Source of the DNA: Methanotrichaceae archaeon
GTDB lineage: Archaea; Halobacteriota; Methanosarcinia; Methanotrichales; Methanotrichaceae
DNA length: 64,000 bases
Assembly: GCA_963748825.1 (NCBI GenBank)
Contig: CAVVKN010000010.1
Span: 140,760 to 204,759 of the forward strand
Direction: 5' to 3'
Below the pieces are notes generated by a model, which was given only the letters and a program-made list of their open reading frames with translations, was not told the origin of the DNA and made no database searches. Every line of letters starts with the position of its first letter. Position 1 is the first letter of the stretch. The translations under genes and the position numbers were made by a program. This document shows positions 19,771-36,566 of the stretch, in pieces.

Positions 19771-21762
19771 TTACAGATCAATGCGTGGGATATTGTCTAC
19801 GGACTCTGGATTGGCCAGAGCAGACAGGTCTCCGGTCTCCTTTCCAAGAGCCTTGGCCTTGATGACACGGCGCATGATCTTGCCGGACCGGGTCTTGGGG
19901 ACATCCTTGACGAAGTAGACCTTGTCGGGGTAAGCGACGGGGCCCAGTACCTTGCGTACGTGGGTGGAGATCTCTTTCGCGAGCTCTGGAGACTCGGCAA
20001 CGCCATCCCTGAGAATGACGAAGGCCACGATCTTCTCGCCCTTGACTTCATCGGGCTGTCCGATGACTGCGGTCTCGGCGACCTTGGGGTGAGAAACGGC
20101 GGCGGACTCGACTTCTGCGTTGGAGATTCTGTGTCCAGCTACCTTCAGCACATCATCGATTCTGCCCTGGATCCACCAGTAGCCATCCTTGTCGCGGGTG
20201 GCCTTGTCTCCAGCCAGGTATGTGCCGGGCTTGGTCTGCCAGTACATCTCCCAGTATTCCTTCTGGTACCTGACGGTATCTCTGAAGAAGGCCCTGAGCA
20301 TGGACGGCCAGGGAGTCTTCTGGACGATGTTTCCGCCGTAGCCGAGTGGCACGGAGTTGGCATCCTCGTCGAAGATATCGGTGTTGAATCCGGGCAATGG
20401 GAAGCATACGGAGCCGGGCTTCTCGGGTGTCATGGCCAGAGGGGCAATGACGTGGCATCCGGTCTCAGTCTGCCACCAGGTATCAATGATTGGTGCCTGG
20501 TCTGCGCCGATGTTCTTCCTGTACCACATATAGGCTTCGGGGTTCAGAGGCTCGCCAACAGATGCCAGAATTCTGATTGAGGAAAGGTCGTACTTCTTCA
20601 CGAAGGCCTCGCCGGTCTTCATGAACATCCTGATGGCGGTTGGTGCGGTGTACAAGATAGATACGCCGTACTGCTCAATGATGGACCACCAGCGGCCCAG
20701 ATCGGGGAAGTCGGGAGATCCCTCGTAAAGGATGCTGGAAGCGCCGAGGCAGAGCGGGCCGTATACTACGTAGCTGTGGCCGGTGATCCAGCCGCAGTCT
20801 GCGGTGCACCAGAAGACATCGTGATCATGTATATCCAGTACCCAGGCAGAAGTCTGAGCCGGAGCTACGGCATATCCACCGTGGACGTGCTCAATACCCT
20901 TGGGCTTGCCGGTTGTGCCGGATGTGTACAGAATGAACAGCCTATCCTCTGGGTCAAGCTGAGCGGTCTCGCACACTGCGGACTGGCCAGCTACGAAATC
21001 ATTGTAGAAGACATCGCGTCCCTCGGTCATGGGAACGGTAACGCCTGTTCTCTTGACGACTACTACCTTCTTGACGGAGGGGGCAGTCTTCATGGCCTCA
21101 TCTACATTGGGCTTGAGGGGCAGTGGCTTGCCGCGCCTGTAGAAGCCATCGGCGGTGACGACAACCTTGGCCTCAGCATCGTTGACCCTGCTTGCCAGGC
21201 CACCGGAGGAGAATCCGGAGAAGACGATGGTGTGAATGGCTCCGATCTTGGCGCATGCCAGCATGGTGATGGGCAGTTCAGGGATCATAGGCAGGTATGC
21301 GACTACTCTGTCTCCCTTCACTACGCCAACGCTCTTGAGGGCATTGGCCATCTTGTTGACCTCTCTGTACAGCTCGTAGTAGGTGATGGTCCTGGTGTCG
21401 CCCACGGGCTCGCCGATGAAGTAGTAGGCTACCTTGTTCCGGTTTGCGGACTTGGCATGCCTGTCTACTGCGTTGTAGACTACATTGATCTTGCCGCCGG
21501 TGAACCACTTGTAGTAAGGCTTGCCGGAGTCGTCAAGAACCTGGGTGTAGGGCGTATACCAATCAGCGTAGGTCTTAGCCATCTCATCCCAAAACTCAAT
21601 GTAATTATCGGAGCACCACTTGCGCATCTCGGTCTCAGTCTTGAAGCCCTTCTTCTTCATCCACTGATACGCATTGGATTGCTCAATTATCGCCTGTGGG
21701 GTGTTGAAAATCCTGGTTTCTTCTTGCAGCGAAGCCGTTTTTGCTGTGTCAGCCAATTTCAT
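19771..21762 (-). CDS. acs: Acetyl-CoA synthetase (AMP-forming), paralog 1
   Basis: [20 protein letters not shown] and [11 protein letters not shown] motifs; AAGGAGG RBS. Confidence 0.97.
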
Positions 21763-22143: not shown

Positions 22144-24129
22144 TCACTTGATGAGCGGAATGGCCTCTACTGCATCGGGGTTAGCCAGAGCGGAAATATC
22201 TCCGGTGGGGTTGCCCAGTGCCTTGGCCTTGATGACGCGGCGCATGATCTTGCCGGACCTGGTCTTGGGCACATCGTTTACGAAGTAAATCGCCTCTGGG
22301 CTGGCTACTGGTCCCAGAGCGGACCTCACATGCTTAACCAGTTCCTTCTTCAGCTCATCGCTCTCCACGTTTCCTGTTCGGAGGGTGACGAAAGCCACGA
22401 TGACCTCGCCCTTGACTTCGTCGGGCTTGCCGATGACGGCTGCCTCGGCGACCTTGGGATGAGATACCAGTGCGGACTCAACCTCAGCGTTGGAGAGCCT
22501 GTGTCCTGCAACCTTCAGCACATCGTCGATCCTGCCCTGGATGGTGATATATCCATCCTTGTCCTTGGTGGCCTTGTCGCCGGCCAGGTATGTGCCGGGC
22601 CTGATCTGCCAGTACATATCCCAGTATTCTTTCTGGTAGCGGACGGTGTCTTTGTAGAAGGCACGGAGCATGGACGGCCAGGGTGTGTTGCTGACGATGT
22701 TGCCTCCGGAGCCTGCCGGCACGGGATTGGCATCCTCATCCAAGATATCGATGTTGAATCCGGGCAATGGGAATGTCGGGGATCCGGGCTTGAGCGGGGT
22801 GATGGGCAGAGGGGATATCAAGAAGCATCCTGTCTCAGTTTGCCACCAGGTGTCCATGATCTGCAGCTTGCCGCCGCCGAAGTTGTTTCTGTACCAGATC
22901 CAGGCCTCAGGATTGATGGGCTCGCCAACTGATCCAAGCAGCCTCAGGCATGAGATGTCGTACATCTTGGGCCACTGATCTCCAGCCTTCATGAACATCC
23001 TCACGGCTGTAGGTGCGGTGTAGAGTATAGACACCTTGTTCTCACTGATGATCTTGAACCACCTGCTGAAGTCGGGATAGTCAGGAGAACCCTCATAGAT
23101 CATGCTGGTAGCACCGAGGCAGAGTGGTCCATAAACCACGTAGCTGTGGCCGGTGATCCATCCTACGTCTGCTGTGCACCACCAGACGTCTGTGTCTTTG
23201 ATGTCGAAGACCCAGGAAAGTGTCTGAGCGGGAGTTACGCAGTAGCCGCCATGGACGTGCTCGATACCCTTGGGCTTGCCGGTAGTGCCGGAGGTGTATA
23301 GGATAAACAGCCGATCTTCGCCGTCCATCTTCTCGCTCTCGCACACATCAGACTGCTTGGCAACCAGTTCGTGGTACCAGACATCTTTGCCCTCTTTCAT
23401 TGGCACTTCTATGCCCGCCCTCTTCACCACAACTACGTTCTTGACGCTTGGGGTGTTGGAGGTAGCCTCATCCACATTAGGCTTGAGGGGCAGCGGCTTG
23501 CCGCGCCTGAAGAAACCGTCCGTGGTAATTACTACCTTGGACTCGGCATCGAGAACTCTGCTGTTCAGGCCGCCGGAGGAGAATCCAGAGAATACCACGC
23601 TGTGTATGGCGCCAATCTTTGCGCAGGCCAGCATGGCAATGGGTGTCTCGGGGATCATGGGCATATATATGCTAACTCTATCGCCCTTGACAACTCCCAG
23701 GCTCTTGAGGCCGTTTGCAAACTTGTTGACCCTCTTAGCCAGATCTGCATAGGTGATCTTCTGGGTAGGCTGATCGACGGGCTCGGGGACAAATATGTAG
23801 GCTACTTTATCTTTTTTAGCGCCTGCAGCATGCCTGTCCACAGCGTTGTAGGCCACATTAATCTTACCGCCCACGAACCACTTGGCATAGGGTGGCACCC
23901 AATTGAGAACCTGGGCATAGGGCTCAAACCAATCGGCATAGGTCTTGGCCATCTCATCCCAGAACTGCAAGTAATTCTGTCCGGTCCAGGCGCGCATCTC
24001 ACGCTCGGTCTTGAATCCCTTCTTCTTCATCCACGCCATGACATTGGAATTCTCAACGAGCTCCTTGGACGGCTCGAATACTCTCGTCTCCTCATAAAGA
24101 ACAGACGTTGTTGCTTTTTGCTCAGCCAA
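22144..24129 (-). CDS. acs: Acetyl-CoA synthetase (AMP-forming), paralog 2
   Basis: Same signature motifs; TTG start with GGAGG RBS. Confidence 0.97.
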
Positions 24130-24501: not shown

Positions 24502-26493
24502 TCACGTGATGAGGGGGATGGCCTCTACTGCTTCGGGGTTAGCCAGGGCGGAGACGTCACCCGTGGGTTGGCCCATTGCTTTGGCCTTGATGACGCGGCG
24601 CATAATCTTGCCGGACCGGGTTTTGGGAACGTCCTTGACGAAGTAAATCGCCTCTGGACTGGCTAATGGTCCAAGGGCCGATCTCACATGCTTAACCAGC
24701 TCCTTCTTCAGCTCATCGGTCCCCTCGACCCCTCCTCTGAGGGAAACGAAGGCCACGATGACCTCGCCCTTGACCTGGTCGGGCTTGCCGATGACAGCAG
24801 CCTCGCCAACCTTGGGATGAGAGACGAAAGCGGACTCGACCTCAGCATTGGAGATTCTGTGGCCAGCTACCTTCAGCACATCATCGATTCTTCCCTGGAT
24901 GGTGAAGTATCCGTCCTTGTCCTTGGTGGCCTTATCGCCAGCCAGGTATGTGCCGGGCCTGATCTCCCAGTAGGTGGACCAATACTCCTTCTGGTACCTA
25001 ACCGTGTCTTTGTAGAAGGCCCTGAGCATGGATGGCCAGGGTGTATTGCTCACTATATTGCCGCCGGAGCCGGCTGGCACGGGGTTGGCATCCTCGTCCA
25101 GGATATCGATGTTGAATCCGGGCAGCGGGAAGGTCGCAGAGCCTGGCTTCAGGGGGGTAATGGGCAGAGGAGACACCAGGAATGTGCCTGTCTCAGTCTG
25201 CCACCAGGTATCCATGATCTGACATTTGCCGGCACCGAAGTGCTCTCTGTACCACATCCAAGCCTCGGGGTTAATGGGCTCGCCTACAGATCCCAGCAGC
25301 CTTATGCTGGAGATATCATAATCCTTGGCCCATTTCTCGCCGGCCTTCATGAACATCCTGATGGCCGTAGGTGCGGTGTAGAAGACGGAGACCTTGTTGT
25401 CCTGGATGATCTTGAAGAACCGACCAAAGTCCGGGAAGTCAGGAGCGCCCTCATACATCATGCTTGTTGCACCGAGGCAGAGAGGTCCATAAACTATGTA
25501 GGAGTGGCCTGTGATCCATCCGATATCGGCTGTGCACCACCAGACATCGCTATCCTTAATGTCGAAGACCCAATGCAAAGTCTGAGCCGGTCCCACGCAG
25601 TATCCGCCGTGAACGTGCTCGATACCCTTGGGTTTGCCGGTTGTGCCGGAGGTGTAAAGGATGAACAGCCGATCCTCAGAGTCCATCTTCTCGCACTCGC
25701 ATTCTTCGGACTTTCCGGCCACCAGGTCGTGCCAGTAGATGTCTCTGCCCGCCTTCATGGGCACTTCAAGTCCTGTCCTCTTGACCACTATTACATTTTT
25801 CACCGTTGGGGTATTGGCTGTGGCCTCGTCCACATTAGGCTTGAGGGGAATGGGCTTTCCACGCCGGTATAAACCATCGGTGGTTATCACAGCTTTGGCC
25901 TCGGCATCCATGATTCTGCTGTTAAGGCCGCCCGAAGAAAATCCGGAGAAAACGATGCAGTGAATGGCTCCGATCTTGGCGATGGCGAGCATGGCAATGG
26001 GCAGTTGGGGGATCATGGGCATGTACAACATGACTCTGTCTCCCTTCTGCACGCCCAGGCTCTTCAGGCCGTTGGCGAACTTGTTGACCTCTTTGTAGAG
26101 CTCTCCATAGGTGATCTTTTGGGTGGGCTGGTCAACGGGCTCAGGCACGAATATGTAAGCTACCTTGTCCTTTTTCGCGCCCAAGGCATGCCTGTCCACA
26201 GAGTTGTAGGCCACGTTGCACTTGCCGCCCACGAACCACTTGGCATAGGGCGGTATCCATTCCAGTGTCGAGGACCAGGGCTCAAACCAATCGGCATAGG
26301 TCTTGGCCATCTCGCCCCAGAACTGAATATAGTTAGCAGAGCACCAGAGGCGCAGCTCCCTCTCTGTCTTGAACCCCTTCTCCTTCATCCATTTCATGAC
26401 GTTGGAGTTATCTACGAGTTCCTTGCTCGGCTCGAATAATCTGGTCTCCTCATATAGCACTGATGTTTTTGCGGTTGCTTTTTGCTCAGCCAT
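24502..26493 (-). CDS. acs: Acetyl-CoA synthetase (AMP-forming), paralog 3
   Basis: Same signature motifs; AAGGAGG RBS. Confidence 0.97.
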
Positions 26494-29187: not shown

Positions 29188-30300
29188 TCAAGAGCCTGCC
29201 TGGGCCAGCATTTCCTCCAATTTTTCCAGGGGCCGGCCGGCGTCCAGGTTTTGTTCTGCCACCCAGGCTTTCAGCTTTTTTATGGGCTTGCCGCAATCGA
29301 TGATATCGGCGGCCTTGTCCATTCCCTCTTTGAGGTTTGATGTATGATCGGTTATGCAAAGCAGCGGGGCGGCATTAAGGCAAACGATGTCTCTCCGAAA
29401 GCTCCTGTCCTCCCCGGACAAGACCCTCAGCAGCTTTATGGCTTCTGCCTCTCTGTCGCTCTGGTAAAGGATAGATGATTCATCTGCTTCTCTTAGCCCC
29501 AGGTCCTGCGGGTTTATGGCATACTCTCGGATCGTTCCATCCTCGGTGAGCTCTGCTACGAGAGACCGGCCCAGGGTGGAGAGCTCATCCATGCCCCGTG
29601 CGTCATCCCGACTCCTGCCGTGCACGACAAAGGCTCTCTGGTAGCCAATTTCTTTCATGGCCTCTGCAATGGGTTGCACCATTTTCTCAGAATAGACGCC
29701 CCGCACGGCGTAAGCTGGCTTGGCGGGGTTAGCCAGAGACCCGGCCACATTGAGAACGGTGCCGAATCTGATCTGAGATAAAATCCTGTAAAGGGCGGAG
29801 GGGTGCACTTTGGCGCTCATGCCGTTGAAGATGCCGATGCCGGCACGCTCAATGCTTCTTTTCACCAGATCAGCGTCACACTCCACATCGACCCCGAGAG
29901 TCTCCAGGATATCAACGGCGCCGCACTTTGAGGTTATGGCCCGCGCTCCATGTTTGGCCATGATTATGCCGTCGGCGGCAGCCACCAGCGATGCGGCGGT
30001 GCTGATATTGAAGGTCTTGACAGCGTCCATGCCAGTGCCGCAATTCTCCACCAGAGGGCCGTCTACATTGGGATGAACCTTAACGGTATCGATCTCGTAA
30101 ATGGCTTCCCAGATGCCGGCAATTTCCTGAGCCGTTGCGCCCTTGGCGGTTATGGCGGCGAGAAATGCACCCTGCTGCAAATCCGGCTGCTCGTTATTCA
30201 AAATCTGCTTGAAAAGAAATGACGCATCTTCTCTTGTCAGGTTGCTGCCCTTAATCATGGCGTCCACACGGCTGCCAAAATACCTCAAACTCTCTTCCAT
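29188..30300 (-). CDS. Anthranilate phosphoribosyltransferase-like protein (divergent TrpD)
   Basis: CGTGMD, TFNIST, KHGAR, NP and DE motifs; several canonical residues changed; no other trp genes nearby. Confidence 0.8.
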   Translation of the reverse strand: MEESLRYFGSRVDAMIKGSNLTREDASFLFKQILNNEQPDLQQGAFLAAITAKGATAQEIAGIWEAIYEIDTVKVHPNVDGPLVENCGTGMDAVKTFNISTAASLVAAADGIIMAKHGARAITSKCGAVDILETLGVDVECDADLVKRSIERAGIGIFNGMSAKVHPSALYRILSQIRFGTVLNVAGSLANPAKPAYAVRGVYSEKMVQPIAEAMKEIGYQRAFVVHGRSRDDARGMDELSTLGRSLVAELTEDGTIREYAINPQDLGLREADESSILYQSDREAEAIKLLRVLSGEDRSFRRDIVCLNAAPLLCITDHTSNLKEGMDKAADIIDCGKPIKKLKAWVAEQNLDAGRPLEKLEEMLAQAGS

Positions 30301-30380
30301 TATACTGTCTCCGCATTGCTAAAATGCTCTTCGCTATTTCTAGTAGCTAACCTCAGATTACTATGGTTTTCCCGTTGTTA

Positions 30381-30514
30381 GTAGTTCGTCTCTGTGCGTT
30401 CTCTGTGAACTCTGTGCCTCTGTGGTGGAAAACGCCGTTAACCACTGGTTATAACCAAATGGTTACGGACTACAATCACCACAGAGACACAGAGCGCACG
30501 GAGGACTCACAGAG
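30381..30514. repeat. CTCTGTG/CACAGAG heptamer inverted-repeat element (large palindrome)
   Basis: Four CTCTGTG units at 30390-30427 face CACAGAG units at 30477-30514 around a palindromic core GGTTATAACC. Confidence 0.8.
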
Positions 30515-30564
30515 GCCTCAATTATTCTATTACCAACTCGATACAGCGAGGAACCCCACAATAT

Positions 30565-31608
30565 TCAAATTAGAACAACCGATTTCAACCCGGTTCTCTG
30601 GGACGAGTGGGAAAATGCGTCCTCAATTCTGGCAAGAGATGTCCTCCTGGTGACGATCCAGTCGGCCTTGATCTTGCCAGAGGTCAAAAGCTCTACAGCC
30701 TGCCGGTTATGCTGGCTGGAGCAGCCGTAGGCCCCGGTGATGGCAAGCTCATGGTAGTGAATTGAGCGGATGTCAATCTGCTCTTGATAGTTTCCCGGAG
30801 CCGGCCCGGAGAAGATGCAGATTCTTCCTCCCGGGGAGAGCAGCTTGAGAAGATCGTTATCCACCCGGACGGCCGGAGTGGCGGTGAGGATGACGTCCAC
30901 GCCTGCTCTTCCGATCTCTGCGGCCAGGACGGTTTTCCCAGACTCTTCCGACGGATTGACGACCAAAGCGCAGGTGTGTCTTTCCAGCAGGTGGATGCGG
31001 CCGGGCAATCTTTCAGCTATTATTATCTTCTTGGCTCCATGAAGCTCGGCTAAAAGAGCATGCAGAGCGCCGATGGGCCCGCCACCGTAGATGAGAACGC
31101 GGTCGCCCTTAGAGACGCAGGCCTGCTCCTGGCCGTTGATGCAACAGGCTAAAGGCTCTGCCAGAGCGGCCAGAGCCGGATCAGATCCGTGGGGCAGCAG
31201 GTTCACGCCGCCTGGAAGGCTCTGCATGGGCAAGGCCAAGAGCTGTGCAAAGCCCCCATCGCAGTTGAATCCCATGATTTTTATGTCGGGGCAGCGGTTG
31301 TTGGCTCCCCGCTGGCACGGCCCGCACTTTTCGCAGGCGATGCCCGGCCAGACCTGTACCAGGTCACCCTCGGCCAGGCTGATGTCCGCATCGACATTAC
31401 AGCCCATCTCCATGATCCTACCCACCATCTCGTGCCCCAGAACGCGCGGGTAGGAGAGGTCCCGGTGGCCCTGCTCTTTCATTTTGATATCTGTGCCACA
31501 GACGGCGCAGGCTAAGATCTCCAGAAGGGCTCCGCCTTTGGGGCACAGCGGATCAGGCAGGTCGTCCAGATCCATAACTCCCGGAGCCTTTAGAACAGCA
31601 GCTTTCAT
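30565..31608 (-). CDS. Zn-dependent medium-chain dehydrogenase (sorbitol/threonine DH-like)
   Basis: CGTD, GHE, CEKCGPC..NRC structural Zn site, EPLAC and GGGPIG motifs. Confidence 0.9.
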   Translation of the reverse strand: MKAAVLKAPGVMDLDDLPDPLCPKGGALLEILACAVCGTDIKMKEQGHRDLSYPRVLGHEMVGRIMEMGCNVDADISLAEGDLVQVWPGIACEKCGPCQRGANNRCPDIKIMGFNCDGGFAQLLALPMQSLPGGVNLLPHGSDPALAALAEPLACCINGQEQACVSKGDRVLIYGGGPIGALHALLAELHGAKKIIIAERLPGRIHLLERHTCALVVNPSEESGKTVLAAEIGRAGVDVILTATPAVRVDNDLLKLLSPGGRICIFSGPAPGNYQEQIDIRSIHYHELAITGAYGCSSQHNRQAVELLTSGKIKADWIVTRRTSLARIEDAFSHSSQRTGLKSVVLI

Positions 31609-31644
31609 GATCGGGATAAATTGTGCGGGTATTTTGCCGTAGCT

Positions 31645-32706
31645 TTACTTCTTGGGCAGTTCCACGGTCATGAGCACGCGGTCTGTCTCCTCGACGAGTT
31701 GCATTTGCGAGACTCCGTAAAGCCCGGCCAGAAGGCTGGCTCCACCCATGCCCACGCCTTCTTTGACGTAACCCTTCGCATATATCTGCACGCCCGGTAT
31801 CTTAGAGTTCTCCAGCCCCGGGTCGGAGTAGTAGTAGGGCCGGCCCACAGACTCCACGATCTCCTTAAAGTTGGCCGTTTTGTCTTCCACTATATATTTA
31901 GTCGTGGCAATGGAGATGTCACCTTCGATTTTCATGGATTTTCCCAGAGCCAGCACAGCGGCCATTTGCGTTCCGCCCGCCAGTACGACTTTGCAGCCCT
32001 GCAGACCTTGCATGAGGCCAAGAGCCGCAGGCATCATGGGATCGCCGACCTGCTGCACTGCTTGCAAGGGGTCGTTCTTCAGGCTGCCAATAGTGATACC
32101 GGCCCGGCCCAGGGCCTCGGCCACCACGTTCTTCTTCAGGGAAGTGGGATTGGACTGGAAGCTGCTGCTCACATTGACATCGTAGCCCAGGGCCCAGAGA
32201 ACGGCCATAGCCGTGGTCGTGCCTCCGGCGATGGACTCACCGATGAAGACGCAGTCGGAAAGTCTGGCGACCTTCTTTCCCAGAAGGACGGCATTTTCAA
32301 AGAGGGCGCGAGCACCAGGCACGGCCGGCTCTTTACGGATGTCGCTTCCCGCCGCTCCGCCAAGCTCCGCATAGGGAATGGCCGGCTTCTTACGCAGGCC
32401 CGAGGCCACGAACAAGGAAGGTATGCCGGTCAGGTTCAGAGCAGCCTTGGTGACGATGGCGGGAGTTGGCGAGCCGCCTGGGGCCTCGGGCAGCTCGGGC
32501 ATGGTGATGATGCGGTTGGTCTCCACCAGCTCGGCATCGGCGCCAGGGGTGTAGTCGGTCAGTTCCGGCGTGGTTCCAGCGGCGGAGAGACCGGGAATCT
32601 TGCCGGTGTCTGTGTTGGAGATGATGCAGAGAAATAAAGGCCGCTGGGGCCGCGGCCCGAAATCGGGGTAGATCCAGTTTGGCATGCTTCTAGCCCAGGT
32701 CTGCAC
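31645..32706 (-). CDS. cobT: Nicotinate-nucleotide--benzimidazole phosphoribosyltransferase (archaeal-type CobT)
   Basis: IPGLSAAG, TPGADAE, PTPA, GESIAGGTTTA, GDPMM, LAGGTQM and KEGVGMGG motifs; start may be the ATG at 32685. Confidence 0.88.
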   Translation of the reverse strand: MQTWARSMPNWIYPDFGPRPQRPLFLCIISNTDTGKIPGLSAAGTTPELTDYTPGADAELVETNRIITMPELPEAPGGSPTPAIVTKAALNLTGIPSLFVASGLRKKPAIPYAELGGAAGSDIRKEPAVPGARALFENAVLLGKKVARLSDCVFIGESIAGGTTTAMAVLWALGYDVNVSSSFQSNPTSLKKNVVAEALGRAGITIGSLKNDPLQAVQQVGDPMMPAALGLMQGLQGCKVVLAGGTQMAAVLALGKSMKIEGDISIATTKYIVEDKTANFKEIVESVGRPYYYSDPGLENSKIPGVQIYAKGYVKEGVGMGGASLLAGLYGVSQMQLVEETDRVLMTVELPKK

Positions 32707-33029: not shown

Positions 33030-33590
33030 ATTCTGTCGGATAGATTTTCTGGAGGGCGACGGCCAGGCCGTAACTCCGGTGGAGTACAAGCGGAGCGAAG
33101 CGCCCAAGACACAAGGCTTTTACGAGCCGCATCTGATCCAGCTTGCTGCTCAGTGCCTGGCCCTGCGGGAGATGGAGGCGGAAAAAGAGCTTGAAGGCAA
33201 GCCCGAAGAGGAAAAGATCAGAATGCTCCTCGCCTGCCGGGACGATCAGGTGCCGGTTTACGTGGTGGGCCAGGGCAAGACGGTTCGAAAGCGTGGCGAG
33301 CGGTTGGAGGTCTGGTCTTATGAAGAAGGCAAGATCAGCGAAGCCCGGATCAGGGAGATCTCCAAGATCTGCCTTTACAGAGGAGTGGAGATCACCACTC
33401 CGGCCATGGTGGAGCTGATGCAAAGGAATGTGCCGGTGCTGCACTTCTCCCACGGCGGCTGGTTTCAGGGTATTTGTCTAGGCATGAGCCACAAGAATGT
33501 TCTCTTGCGCATCAAGCAGTTCCAGGGGCAGGAGATGAGGAGAAGTCGCTATCCATTGCCAGAAAGATCGTATCCGGAAATTCAAATCTA
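33030..33590 (+). pseudogene. cas1: cas4-cas1 fusion remnant (type I-G/I-U-like), internally deleted and frameshifted
   Basis: Cas4 part CRIDFLE..PVEYKR..QLAAQCLALRE is joined directly to a Cas1 N-terminus PVYVVGQG..RKRGERL..ITTPAMVELM..HFSHGGWFQG..KNVLLRIKQF; the shifted frame continues SLSIARKIVSG. Confidence 0.85.
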
Positions 33591-33593
33591 TTT

Positions 33594-36566
33594 TTACCTA
33601 ACTTCTGCTAGTCGCTCCTCATATCGCCCTGCGGCAGGGAACACTCTTCCCAGAGCGCTGGCCAACTCTTCCAGGCGCACGGGCTTGCTGATGTAGTCAT
33701 CCATTCCTGCCTCGATGCATCTTTTCCTGTCGCCCTCTAAAGCGTGCGCAGTGACTGCGATTATGTGAGGCGATCCATTCGGCCAGCGTTCGCGAATGGC
33801 CTTTGCCGCATCAAAGCCGTCCATCTCTGGCATTTGCACATCCATCAGGACCACGTCATAGTTCTGGCGTTCCAAAGCCTGCAAGACCTCTCTGCCGTTG
33901 GCTGCCACATCCGCTCTGATCCCCAGCTTCCTGAGCATGAGCAGGGCAACCTTCTGATTTACCAGATTATCCTCTGCAATCAGCAGCTTCAAATGGCCAG
34001 GAATATCTTGCTGCAAATCGACCATATTGGGCTTCTTTTTCATCTCCAAACATTGCTCTGGTGTCGCTTCATCAGCCAGAATTGTGAAGCCAAATGTGCT
34101 TCCCCTGCAAATTTCGCTTTGCGCCCAAATGGTCCCGCCCATAAGCTGCACCAGCTTTTTGCTGATGGCTAGACCCAAACCCGTTCCGCCATATTTGCGA
34201 GTGGTAGACATATCCACCTGGCTAAAGGACTGGAAGAGGCTGCTCATGCGATCCTGGGGAATGCCGATCCCCGTATCTCTGACCGAGAAGAACAGCTTAG
34301 TCTTTCCATTCTCCTGGCCGTCGCCCGAGACATGTACCGATACCTCTCCACGGTCTGTAAACTTGATTGCATTGCCGAGGAGGTTTATTAAGACCTGGGA
34401 AATGCTGGTGGCGTCTCCCTGCAGCCTCTTCGGAATGCAGTCATCAATATGATAATAAAAATGGATATACTTCTTCGCAGCAATGGGCTTGAGCAAGTCC
34501 ATGGCATCTTCAATGCATTTGCTTAGTTCGAAGGGCTGCTTTTCTATCTCCCTCTTGCCTTCTTCGATCTTGGAGAAGTCCAAGATATTGTTGATAACGG
34601 ATACGAGGATATCACCGCTGCTACGCACCGTCTCCAGGCAATCTTTTTGATCTGGCAGAAGAGGAGTATCGAGAAGTATTCCCGTCATGCCTATGATGGC
34701 GTTGAGGGGAGTCCTGATCTCATGGCTCATATTAGCCAAAAATTCGGATTTGGCGCGAGCAGCGGCTTCTGCATCCTCTTTGGCCTTGCGAAGAGCCTCT
34801 TGTGCCTTTTTGCTATCGGTAATATCCCGTACCAATAGTAAAAACGTGTCCTCTCCGCCAGGGTTGATGCGCGCCTCAAAGAATGACATCTTGCCATCTA
34901 TAATGAGCGCATACTCGAAGATCTGCATCTTTCTGGTTTTTTTGGCCTGATTCACATGATAAAGAGCCTGGTCAACCATATCCTCCGGTAGAAGATCCTG
35001 CATTTTCTTGCCCAGAAATGACTGAGGAGGCAAGTAGAGTGGTGATGTCTCCTGCACATTATAGTCCAAAAAGGTGCCGTCCTCGGCGATCAGGAACATC
35101 ATATCGGGAATTGCATCCAGAAGAGATCTATTCTTAGCCTCGTTTTTTTTCAGCTCCATTTGAGCCCTCATGCGCTCTGTTATATTGCGCACGGATTCAA
35201 TGGCACCGGTGACATTGCCTTCAGAATCGTAAAGTGCCGTTGCACTTCCCTGCAAAAAGGCCTCGCCCCCCCTCATATTGGGCATAAAGCCCTCCCAAAA
35301 GATATGGCCGTCTTCCTGTCTCATCATTTTATCGTAAAATTCATTCGAAATCCAATATCTTCTGCCCCACTCGTCATATTCATCCGGTGATTCCTTATTA
35401 TATTCAAGCACGATATCGGCAAGCGTCGGCCGGCGTTTGCCATAAAAAGGAAGCGCATACTCATAATGGCCTTTTCCCAGCATATCTTTGGCAATAATAC
35501 CGGTCATCGCCTCGATAGCCCGATTCCAGGCTATGACTGTGCCCTGTCTGTTAATAACAAAGGTGGCGTCTGGCAGGAAATTGATAATATCCGCCAGGCG
35601 GCGTTCGGAGTCTTTTAGCGCATCTTCAGCTTCTTTTCGATCAGTTATGTCTCGTATGGATTCAATAGCTCCAATTAATTCTCCCTCGTTATCCCGAAGA
35701 GGGGATGCTGTAGCCCAGACATAAGTTCTCTGGCCGGCCAATAAAAAAGGTGCCACCGATTCGGCATAGAGGGTATCCCCTTTCTTTTCCACATAACGGT
35801 ATTGAGACCTGGTCTCTGGATTGTCGCCATATATCAGGTCGACCAGAATAGGCCGTTGCTCTCCATAAAAGGGAACGCTGTATGCATAGTCGCCCTTTCC
35901 TATTATCTCCTGTTTTTTGATGCCGGTCATTTCCTCTATGGCCCGGTTCCAGGCAATCACTTTCCTGCTCTTATCTATGACGAAGGTGGCATCAGGCAGA
36001 AAGTCAATTATGTCCATAAGCTGGCGGCGGGTGAGATTCGCCACCTCATCCGAACTAAAGCTCTTTTTTGCTTCTTCGCATATAAGCTGATTTCCCCCAT
36101 TTTCCTGCTGGACAGCTGCAAATCGTATGGTCTTTTTCGTCCCATCCTTGCAGGTTACCGTAAAGGTCCGGCACCTCTTGGCGCCAGCTCCAATTTCATT
36201 TTTATCTTTGATCCAGGCTGCTATGGCAGCATTTCGATAATCTGGGTCAGGAAAGGCTCTCTTAAACCATTCTCTTCCGCACGAAATCTCTTCTAGATCA
36301 TAACCAAAAATCTCGATAAATTTAGGATTTATGCTGCAGAATGTCCCGTCTTTTTCAATGATGGCAATAGCTAAAGGAGCGTTTTCGATAATGCTGGTGA
36401 TGTTTCTGCTTCTATCCTCCAGCTCTTCCAGGCCGACTATAAGACGCTCTACCGTCTCTGAAACGGCCCGGCAAGTCGGGCAGGTCTCTGCGATTTTACT
36501 GCCAAGCTCATCTAATGTGAGGCTGATCTCATTTATCTTATCGCTAAAATAGCTGCCCATAACCAA
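33594..36566 (-). CDS. Multi-PAS hybrid sensor histidine kinase with C-terminal receiver
   Basis: Four PAS-type repeats; [15 protein letters not shown]-box; NAIKFT; DTGIG; GGTGLGL; receiver LMDVQMP..KP. Confidence 0.95.

Follow-up and report, generated by a model that had tools for sequence, protein, structure and literature searches.

The anaerobic benzimidazole operon is given as bzaAB/bzaF-cobT-bzaCDE in the available text of PMC7617358, which also describes the archaeal and bacterial forms of CobT as non-homologous. In TrpD, the anthranilate phosphoribosyltransferase of tryptophan synthesis, the Asn of the KHGN motif and an Arg of helix 8 hold the carboxylate of anthranilate and other positions bind phosphoribosyl pyrophosphate (PRPP) and Mg, according to the accessible part of PMC9835598. 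Here we set against these systems a cluster of three genes from a Methanotrichaceae archaeon, in which cobT is followed by genes for a Zn-dependent dehydrogenase and a TrpD-like phosphoribosyltransferase; the cluster occupies positions 29188-32706 of a 64,000-nucleotide stretch of DNA (the window) that corresponds to 140760-204759 of contig C10 in a 2.88-Mb assembly (G000; GenBank GCA_963748825.1) of 25 contigs and 94.88% completeness. From gene context and signature residues we judge, with a probability of roughly 0.7, that the dehydrogenase and its TrpD-like partner work as a two-enzyme module in cobamide metabolism, concerned with the lower ligand or the nucleotide loop, and the pair probably performs an undescribed step of B12 assembly. 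We found no description of such a pair in the literature on TrpD and cobamides, a scope that did not extend to supplementary tables. The glycosyltransferase family 3 neighbourhood-network paper (PMC5445326) presents, in its available text, only clusters of the TrpD, DeoA and YbiB types with no mention of cobalamin, and a figure legend in the accessible part of a Chlorobium paper (PMC8620254) lists 'trpD' and 'DH' among cobalamin genes without comment, an arrangement that might resemble the pair.

All three open reading frames (ORFs) lie on the minus strand. The first (31645-32706) encodes a 353-aa archaeal-type CobT, the nicotinate-mononucleotide-dependent phosphoribosyltransferase, which scores 432.4 bits against NF003372 and 307.1 bits against TIGR00303 (cut-off 240), placing it within the archaeal family, and which is the only cobT match in the assembly. 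After a spacer of 36 nt (31609-31644) comes the gene for a 347-aa Zn-dependent, probably NAD-linked medium-chain dehydrogenase (30565-31608), one of the polyol/threonine-dehydrogenase group with ADH_N and ADH_zinc_N domains, and then, beyond a second spacer of 264 nt (30301-30564), the gene for the 370-aa TrpD-like protein (29188-30300), which Pfam and NCBIfam profiles, signature columns, a tree and a structural model assign to a distinct, cobamide-linked clade of phosphoribosyltransferases. These coordinates agree with the initial annotation of the window, made from the sequence alone, as regards three co-oriented genes and the 36-nt gap; the longer spacer was absent from it. That spacer holds a dispersed, partly palindromic short repeat resembling a miniature inverted-repeat transposable element, with 53 blastn high-scoring segment pairs (71-97% identical) on many contigs of the same genome, and the corresponding interval in relatives, measured between tblastn matches, is far shorter (21 nt in L016, 22 nt in L021 and 45 nt in L012 and L013). 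Close relatives of the window carry the public-record labels Methanothrix or Methanotrichaceae.

The dehydrogenase and the TrpD-like gene travel together. Counting as a pair any dehydrogenase of this type within 1.5 kb of a TrpD-like gene, we found the two side by side at 68 of the 72 loci taken from named genome records; at the remaining four the contig stops no more than 234 nt upstream. An even sample of the organism's own phylum contains the subfamily in 23 of 401 genomes, from only four families, and the pair is adjacent at 15 of 15 loci, which span four families and both gene orders; in an even sample of Desulfobacterota the subfamily occurs in 11 of 301 genomes, with the pair adjacent at 8 of 10 further loci. 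Some lineages of the family seem to lack the pair, none having turned up in 6 of 6 sampled genomes of one genus. A metagenome scan returned only close relatives (at least 57% identity) and no new gene contexts. This conserved pairing supports the initial proposal that the TrpD-like protein acts with the neighbouring dehydrogenase. The companion proposal, that all three genes form a conserved unit, did not survive, the archaeal cobT being adjacent only in some Methanotrichaceae genera; another genus of that family and the Methanomassiliicoccales loci do not have it beside the pair. In the tree described below, TrpD-like proteins from Methanotrichaceae branch from within those of the Methanomassiliicoccales (60-69% identity across phyla), which suggests transfer between these methanogen lineages. 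In one Methanotrichaceae record among the 68 (L092:6646-9325) cobT is followed by a mere remnant of the pair, the N-terminal 104 residues of the dehydrogenase and the C-terminal 76 of the TrpD-like protein; the pair was either deleted in nature or misassembled in this record.

The connection with cobamides is drawn from several groups of organisms. The archaeal cobT is adjacent to the pair at all 14 same-genus loci and at 33 of the 72 loci overall. Among 17 Desulfobacterota loci, 7 encode a fusion of the dehydrogenase with a bacterial-type CobT (PF02277), which in one such genome is the only CobT; L223 and L226 have a free-standing CobT gene after the pair and CobS after that, with a class I/II aminotransferase gene following CobS in L226. 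A bacterial-type CobT also lies directly upstream of the pair at five archaeal loci from three other archaeal families (one of these proteins was scanned, scoring 449.6 bits against TIGR03160, and four were joined to it by blastp clustering). Archaeal and bacterial CobT being non-homologous, the association of the pair with CobT therefore arose with two unrelated CobT families, and the fusion suggests, by analogy with BluB/CobT2, where a base synthase is joined to the base activator, that a lower-ligand substrate may be handed over to CobT, which favours a step that provides CobT with its substrate. At 12 of the 17 Desulfobacterota loci the operon begins with a cobalamin riboswitch (RF00174) on the same strand. 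Other neighbours are CobW (L080), a cobyric-acid-synthase-like (CobQ-like) gene (L078), an O-methyltransferase gene downstream of the pair (L222) and, near the pair at three loci, a corrinoid-ABC-ATPase-like gene, the one example scanned scoring 346.7 bits, below the cut-off of 537. The tie to CobT and cobamides that was initially proposed thus gains support from fusions to a non-homologous CobT, from cobalamin riboswitches and from CobS and CobD-like neighbours. Six archaeal loci (L241:7086-8162, L242, L246, L247, L253 and L254) have beside the pair, in divergent orientation, a gene for a 358-aa protein that in L241 contains a ribbon-helix-helix domain and a weak AIR-synthase-like region (AIRS E = 1.4e-4, below cut-off).

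The TrpD-like protein has the two-domain fold of type III phosphoribosyltransferases (AlphaFold2 model, pLDDT 91.7), and the best Foldseek matches of the model are all TrpD (TM 0.77-0.93). Its profile scores are 213.8 bits for PF00591, 53.1 bits for PF02885 and 284.8 bits for TIGR01245, above the cut-off of 199.05, though canonical relatives reach 406-436 bits. The motifs CGTGMD, FNIST, KHGAR, GMDE and HPSALYRILSQIRFGTVLN, picked out in the initial annotation, are all present in the translation, and such motifs separate 76 paralogues from eight canonical TrpDs, with GTGMD for GTGGD, HGAR for KHGN and a helix-8 region shorter by two residues. The site for PRPP and Mg2+ is retained: N98, S100, T101, H117, R120, T123, S124, D238 and E239 are invariant in 31 members, and the loop reads GTGMD with Met for the fourth Gly. 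The clamp for the anthranilate carboxylate is lost, the Asn of KHGN being replaced by Ala119 and the column of the canonical helix-8 Arg being Leu; by alignment, an invariant Arg172 sits about one helical turn before that canonical position. The paralogues further have a six-residue insertion ahead of GMDE and invariant C126 and C141. Replacement of the Asn/Arg pair that holds the carboxylate of anthranilate argues for a different acceptor.

A quick maximum-likelihood tree of 77 rows, comprising the loci examined here and representatives of 50%-identity clusters, divides 37 subfamily rows from 40 canonical rows at SH-aLRT 100, and so the phylogeny called for initially sets the subfamily apart from canonical TrpD. 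The window's gene lies outside the canonical clade and outside any trp gene context, its neighbours being cobT and the dehydrogenase. Scores of TrpD homologues in 31 related genomes fall into a canonical class of 406-436 bits (23 genomes) and a second class of 267-292 bits, with 16 occurrences spread over 15 genomes that all belong to the window's genus, and with none in the 12 other-family genomes of that draw. Both canonical trpD and the paralogue are present in 11 same-genus genomes; in the complete relative G005 the canonical trpD lies about 2.8 kb upstream of trpC, the gene for indole-glycerol-phosphate synthase (IGPS), on the same strand. The separate clade, the remodelled anthranilate site and the canonical trpD of sister genomes bear out the original view of the protein as a TrpD paralogue rather than the tryptophan enzyme.

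The situation in the organism's own assembly is less simple. No TrpD homologue other than two TrpD-like paralogues exceeds the cut-off, and a canonical copy is lacking, as would be expected if the paralogue were the sole trpD; but trpE, trpC and trpF were not found either, and in sister genomes the paralogue coexists with a canonical trpD located next to trpC. No match to IGPS, PRAI or the chorismate-binding domain (trpC, trpF and trpE, respectively) was found in the whole assembly at its 94.88% completeness. There is indeed no other trp gene in the window, as first noted, and trpB-trpA is present on another contig (C23, about 85-87 kb). IGPS and canonical TrpD were likewise not found in three same-genus assemblies (G001, G011 and G016; 79, 93 and 77% complete), the paralogues of which are those closest to the window's (89-93% identity). 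When the trp operon of a complete relative is used as a guide, its flanking genes map within another contig at 64-66% identity. It is plausible that this sub-lineage has truly lost its early trp genes while keeping indole salvage, gaps in the assemblies being the alternative. Whether or not the loss is real, the paralogue cannot serve tryptophan synthesis in this genome.

The partner dehydrogenase (ADH_N 69.9 bits, ADH_zinc_N 50.9 bits) reaches no NCBIfam equivalog cut-off, scoring 156 of 450 bits for IolM and, for L-threonine 3-dehydrogenase, 142.1 of 458.35 bits (TIGR00692) and 149.1 of 380 bits (NF003808). It has the zinc ligands and NAD-type Rossmann motif of Zn medium-chain dehydrogenases. 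Invariant in 28 partner dehydrogenases are C37, H59, E60, E151 and C155, which we take to be zinc ligands, C92, C95, C98 and C106, presumably the ligands of a structural zinc, and G175, G177, G180 and E199. Because the zinc ligands, the structural cysteines, the GxGxxG motif and the acidic residue that follows it are all invariant, the protein looks catalytically complete, like an active Zn enzyme of the NAD type. Among solved structures the closest are those of a putative Zn dehydrogenase (4ej6) and of archaeal L-threonine 3-dehydrogenases (202.7 bits), and enzymes related to it act on the secondary alcohols of polyols, sugar phosphates and threonine. A complex prediction for the two partner proteins from alignment input (score 0.00, mark 0.32) gave no answer either way.

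The scheme that we favour is as follows. The TrpD-like enzyme, with PRPP and Mg2+, would ribosylate a nitrogen nucleophile other than anthranilate; the Zn/NAD dehydrogenase would oxidise or reduce a hydroxyl or carbonyl group of the phosphoribosyl adduct or of its open-chain (Amadori-type) form; and the product would be, or would yield, the substrate from which CobT makes the alpha-ribotide, which CobS would then join to the corrinoid. Within this scheme we infer the acceptor, the order of the two reactions and an output that is a base rather than a ribosyl donor. We rank the making or tailoring of a base upstream of CobT above donor recycling and above anomer conversion or salvage, and these above linker chemistry.

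In its most specific form, which is tentative and on balance unlikely, the scheme would make the pair the missing anaerobic route to 5-methylbenzimidazole, unsubstituted benzimidazole or both. The TrpD-like enzyme would phosphoribosylate an ortho-substituted aromatic amine, C1' of the ribose would become C2 of the imidazole as in the last steps of the BluB reaction, oxidation by the NAD-dependent dehydrogenase would aromatise the ring with departure of the sugar remnant, and the adjacent or fused CobT would accept the free base. To our knowledge, known genes cover the hydroxy-, methoxy- and dimethylbenzimidazoles, and neither 5-methylbenzimidazole or benzimidazole nor several archaeal steps of loop assembly. 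Kohler is said to have reported 5-methylbenzimidazolyl cobamide in M. soehngenii (Methanothrix) in 1988, and a study of the same year by Krautler, Kohler and Stupperich reportedly, to go by its title, concerned sulfate reducers. Such a route, if real, would explain the 5-methylbenzimidazolyl cobamide of Methanothrix and of some sulfate reducers, as well as the presence of the pair in three Methanomassiliicoccales chromosomes with one ThiC-family gene.

How the pair relates to the known anaerobic route can be judged from ThiC-family genes, with score classes, and in a single instance a riboswitch, used to distinguish ThiC from BzaF, for which NCBIfam has no specific model. The cluster described here is not a bza operon: the genome's two ThiC-family genes, one of which scores under the ThiC cut-off, are on C23 and C9, away from cobT. 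In the Desulfobacterota genome G034 the pair coexists with a ThiC-like gene that lies beside cobT and is headed by a riboswitch. The three complete Methanomassiliicoccales chromosomes with the pair each encode just one ThiC, which scores high, and have CobT or what remains of it, and about 7 of 12 pair-bearing Desulfobacterota assemblies show no lower-scoring second ThiC copy. The pair is found both with and without a second, BzaF-like ThiC paralogue. As far as gene content indicates, the pair appears not to depend on the known anaerobic base synthase.

An ordinary anthranilate phosphoribosyltransferase is what profile scores alone would suggest, since the protein exceeds the TIGR01245 cut-off (284.8 against 199.05 bits), has the TrpD fold and shares with its paralogue the position of only TrpD homologue in the assembly. 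A role in tryptophan synthesis is nevertheless scarcely credible given the separate clade and replaced carboxylate-binding residues, the coexistence of canonical trpD and paralogue in 11 same-genus genomes, the failure to find trpE, trpC and trpF in this genome and the control of the operon elsewhere by a cobalamin riboswitch. Hardly more can be said for a pair without any cobamide function, in which the cobT adjacency seen in the window would be inherited synteny. It is true that the whole Methanotrichaceae block is syntenic and that the Methanomassiliicoccales loci are without cobamide neighbours, but the independent links to a non-homologous CobT in other phyla, the fusions, the riboswitches at 12 of 17 loci and the CobS, CobW and CobQ-like neighbours leave this reading strongly disfavoured. 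Control of a cobamide-independent substitute for a B12-dependent reaction is the other common reason for such a riboswitch.

Other readings keep the pair within cobamide metabolism. The TrpD-like enzyme could remake nicotinate mononucleotide from PRPP and the nicotinate released by CobT, or supply another beta-ribotide donor. Nicotinate and anthranilate are both aromatic carboxylates, the paralogues keep an invariant Arg172 roughly one turn of the helix away from where TrpD has its Arg, and tight coupling to CobT, fusions included, would suit either of its substrates. We consider this distinctly unlikely: NadC, the quinolinate phosphoribosyltransferase that is the de novo source of the donor, is present in all five pair-bearing genomes tested, and for that reason donor supply seems unnecessary, the flux needed for cobamides is small, and the dehydrogenase would be left without a role. 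No better are the prospects of a route in which a base is trapped as a beta-ribotide and transient oxidation of a ribose hydroxyl by the dehydrogenase allows inversion to alpha, or in which salvaged ribosides are processed in that way. It speaks for such a route that enzymes related to the dehydrogenase have secondary alcohols of polyols and sugar phosphates as substrates, that the site for PRPP is preserved and that the ribbon-helix-helix protein with its AIR-synthase-like region stands beside the pair at six archaeal loci; but a kinase-like reading of that neighbour is weak, we know of no precedent for the chemistry, and it would duplicate CobT, to which the pair is fused or adjacent and which it does not replace. 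Lastly, a dehydrogenase of the threonine type might make the aminopropanol linker, with the TrpD-like protein as an accessory. Archaeal L-threonine 3-dehydrogenases are among its nearest solved relatives, and the aminotransferase-fold gene after CobS in L226 is possibly a threonine-phosphate decarboxylase, but this too is very unlikely, with the Tdh equivalog cut-offs far off (149 of 380 and 142 of 458 bits), with the base-activating CobT rather than linker enzymes as fusion partner, and with no place in linker synthesis for a PRPP-dependent partner.

A number of observations weigh against the two-enzyme cobamide module that we favour. No member of the subfamily has a known substrate, product or activity, and the TrpD-like enzyme cannot simply replace CobT, because PRPP transfer of the TrpD type gives a beta-N-glycoside and the alpha form is the one required in cobamides. 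In Methanotrichaceae, cobT, the pair, an AI-2E transporter, MtaB and the acetyl-CoA synthetases form one syntenic block, so that cobT adjacency in this family alone is weak evidence. At 27 loci, mostly labelled Methanomassiliicoccales, and in one genus of the same family, no cobamide gene lies beside the pair, and the neighbours there (dihydropteroate synthase, ThiL, LarA-like and TfrB-like proteins) are housekeeping genes that give no functional clue; no riboswitch was seen at 5 of the 17 bacterial loci. Two of the ten sampled Desulfobacterota matches have neither dehydrogenase nor CobT, one (L219:7980-9699) adjoining a shikimate kinase gene and the other (L227:4026-7448) a molybdopterin oxidoreductase gene, and the subfamily may hold more than one function. 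Occurrence both with and without a BzaF-like ThiC fits neither a role strictly downstream of 5-hydroxybenzimidazole nor, by itself, that of a base synthase. In the window, the TrpD-like gene may be transcribed separately because of the 264-nt repeat-bearing spacer. In favour of the module, contigs of two metatranscriptome libraries (90-95% identity to the window) overlap portions of all three genes, and one of 660 nt spans the junction between dehydrogenase and TrpD-like gene including the repeat, with a 13-nt deletion and a 50-nt skip; they are consistent with expression in relatives, although they could be carried-over DNA and show neither the strand nor a single transcript.

The genome has a second copy of the pair on C23 (255872-258041; L004:7873-10042), with genes that overlap by 11 nt and products 64% (dehydrogenase) and 77% (TrpD-like) identical to those of the window. 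There is no cobT beside it, and an IS3-family transposase gene follows at a distance of about 1 kb downstream. Because this copy groups in the tree with other Methanotrichaceae lineages, apart from the window's copy, its placement suggests that it may have been acquired laterally rather than by recent duplication. The same contig has two quinolinate phosphoribosyltransferase matches of identical score 5 kb apart (20793-21299 and 25785-26291), which suggests a recent local duplication. Elsewhere in the window, two tandem minus-strand genes for AMP-forming acetyl-CoA synthetase (22144-24129 and 24502-26493), with a third copy farther on in relatives, are typical of acetate-activating Methanothrix. 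A plus-strand ORF of 205 aa (33079-33696) aligns with Cas1 over no more than the N-terminal third of the family (PF01867, 61.3 bits) and is probably a Cas1 remnant; its end overlaps the 3' end of an opposite-strand gene for a sensor histidine kinase of 990 aa.

New here are the Methanothrix context of the pair with the sole cobT, the second pair near an insertion sequence element, the repeat between the genes, a possible natural deletion of the pair in a relative, the seeming absence of early trp genes, the sampled frequencies and the nesting of the Methanothrix copies within those of the Methanomassiliicoccales. Cobamides are central to acetoclastic and methylotrophic methanogenesis, to the acetyl-CoA pathway and to organohalide respiration, and the identity of the lower ligand decides which organisms use which cobamide. 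Methanothrix is among the main producers of methane on Earth, and the pair lies beside its only cobT. With two soluble enzymes, PRPP and NAD, the pair offers a concrete and cheap experimental handle. There is also a practical consequence for genome annotation, as automatic procedures will label these paralogues trpD and a genome may then falsely look able to make tryptophan.

The TrpD-like protein shares with TrpD (EC 2.4.2.18; glycosyltransferase family 3; for example PDB 9UCW, 1ZYK and 1ZVW) the two-domain type III fold and the PRPP/Mg positions, at 32-40% identity over full-length matches, and departs from it in forming its own clade, in the GTGMD loop, the Ala for the KHGN Asn, the remodelled helix 8, the insertion and C126/C141, and in having a dehydrogenase as partner, never lying in a trp operon among the loci examined. 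The dehydrogenase has in common with the polyol and L-threonine 3-dehydrogenases (for example PDB 2DFV and 4EJ6) the zinc ligands, structural-zinc cysteines, GxGxxG motif and trailing acidic residue, yet forms a separate family below every equivalog cut-off and is fused to CobT in some bacteria. Like the bza operon, as that is presented in the available text cited at the outset, the loci of the pair show clustering with cobT and cobalamin riboswitches, but the dehydrogenase/TrpD-like module itself contains no ThiC-like radical SAM enzyme. The closest parallel to the fusions is BluB/CobT2 of Propionibacterium freudenreichii, in which, according to the accessible part of PMC4657239, an enzyme is likewise joined to CobT; there the partner is the O2-dependent flavin destructase BluB, whereas here, in strictly anaerobic hosts, it is a Zn dehydrogenase, and a gene for a PRPP-dependent partner always accompanies the dehydrogenase-CobT fusion.

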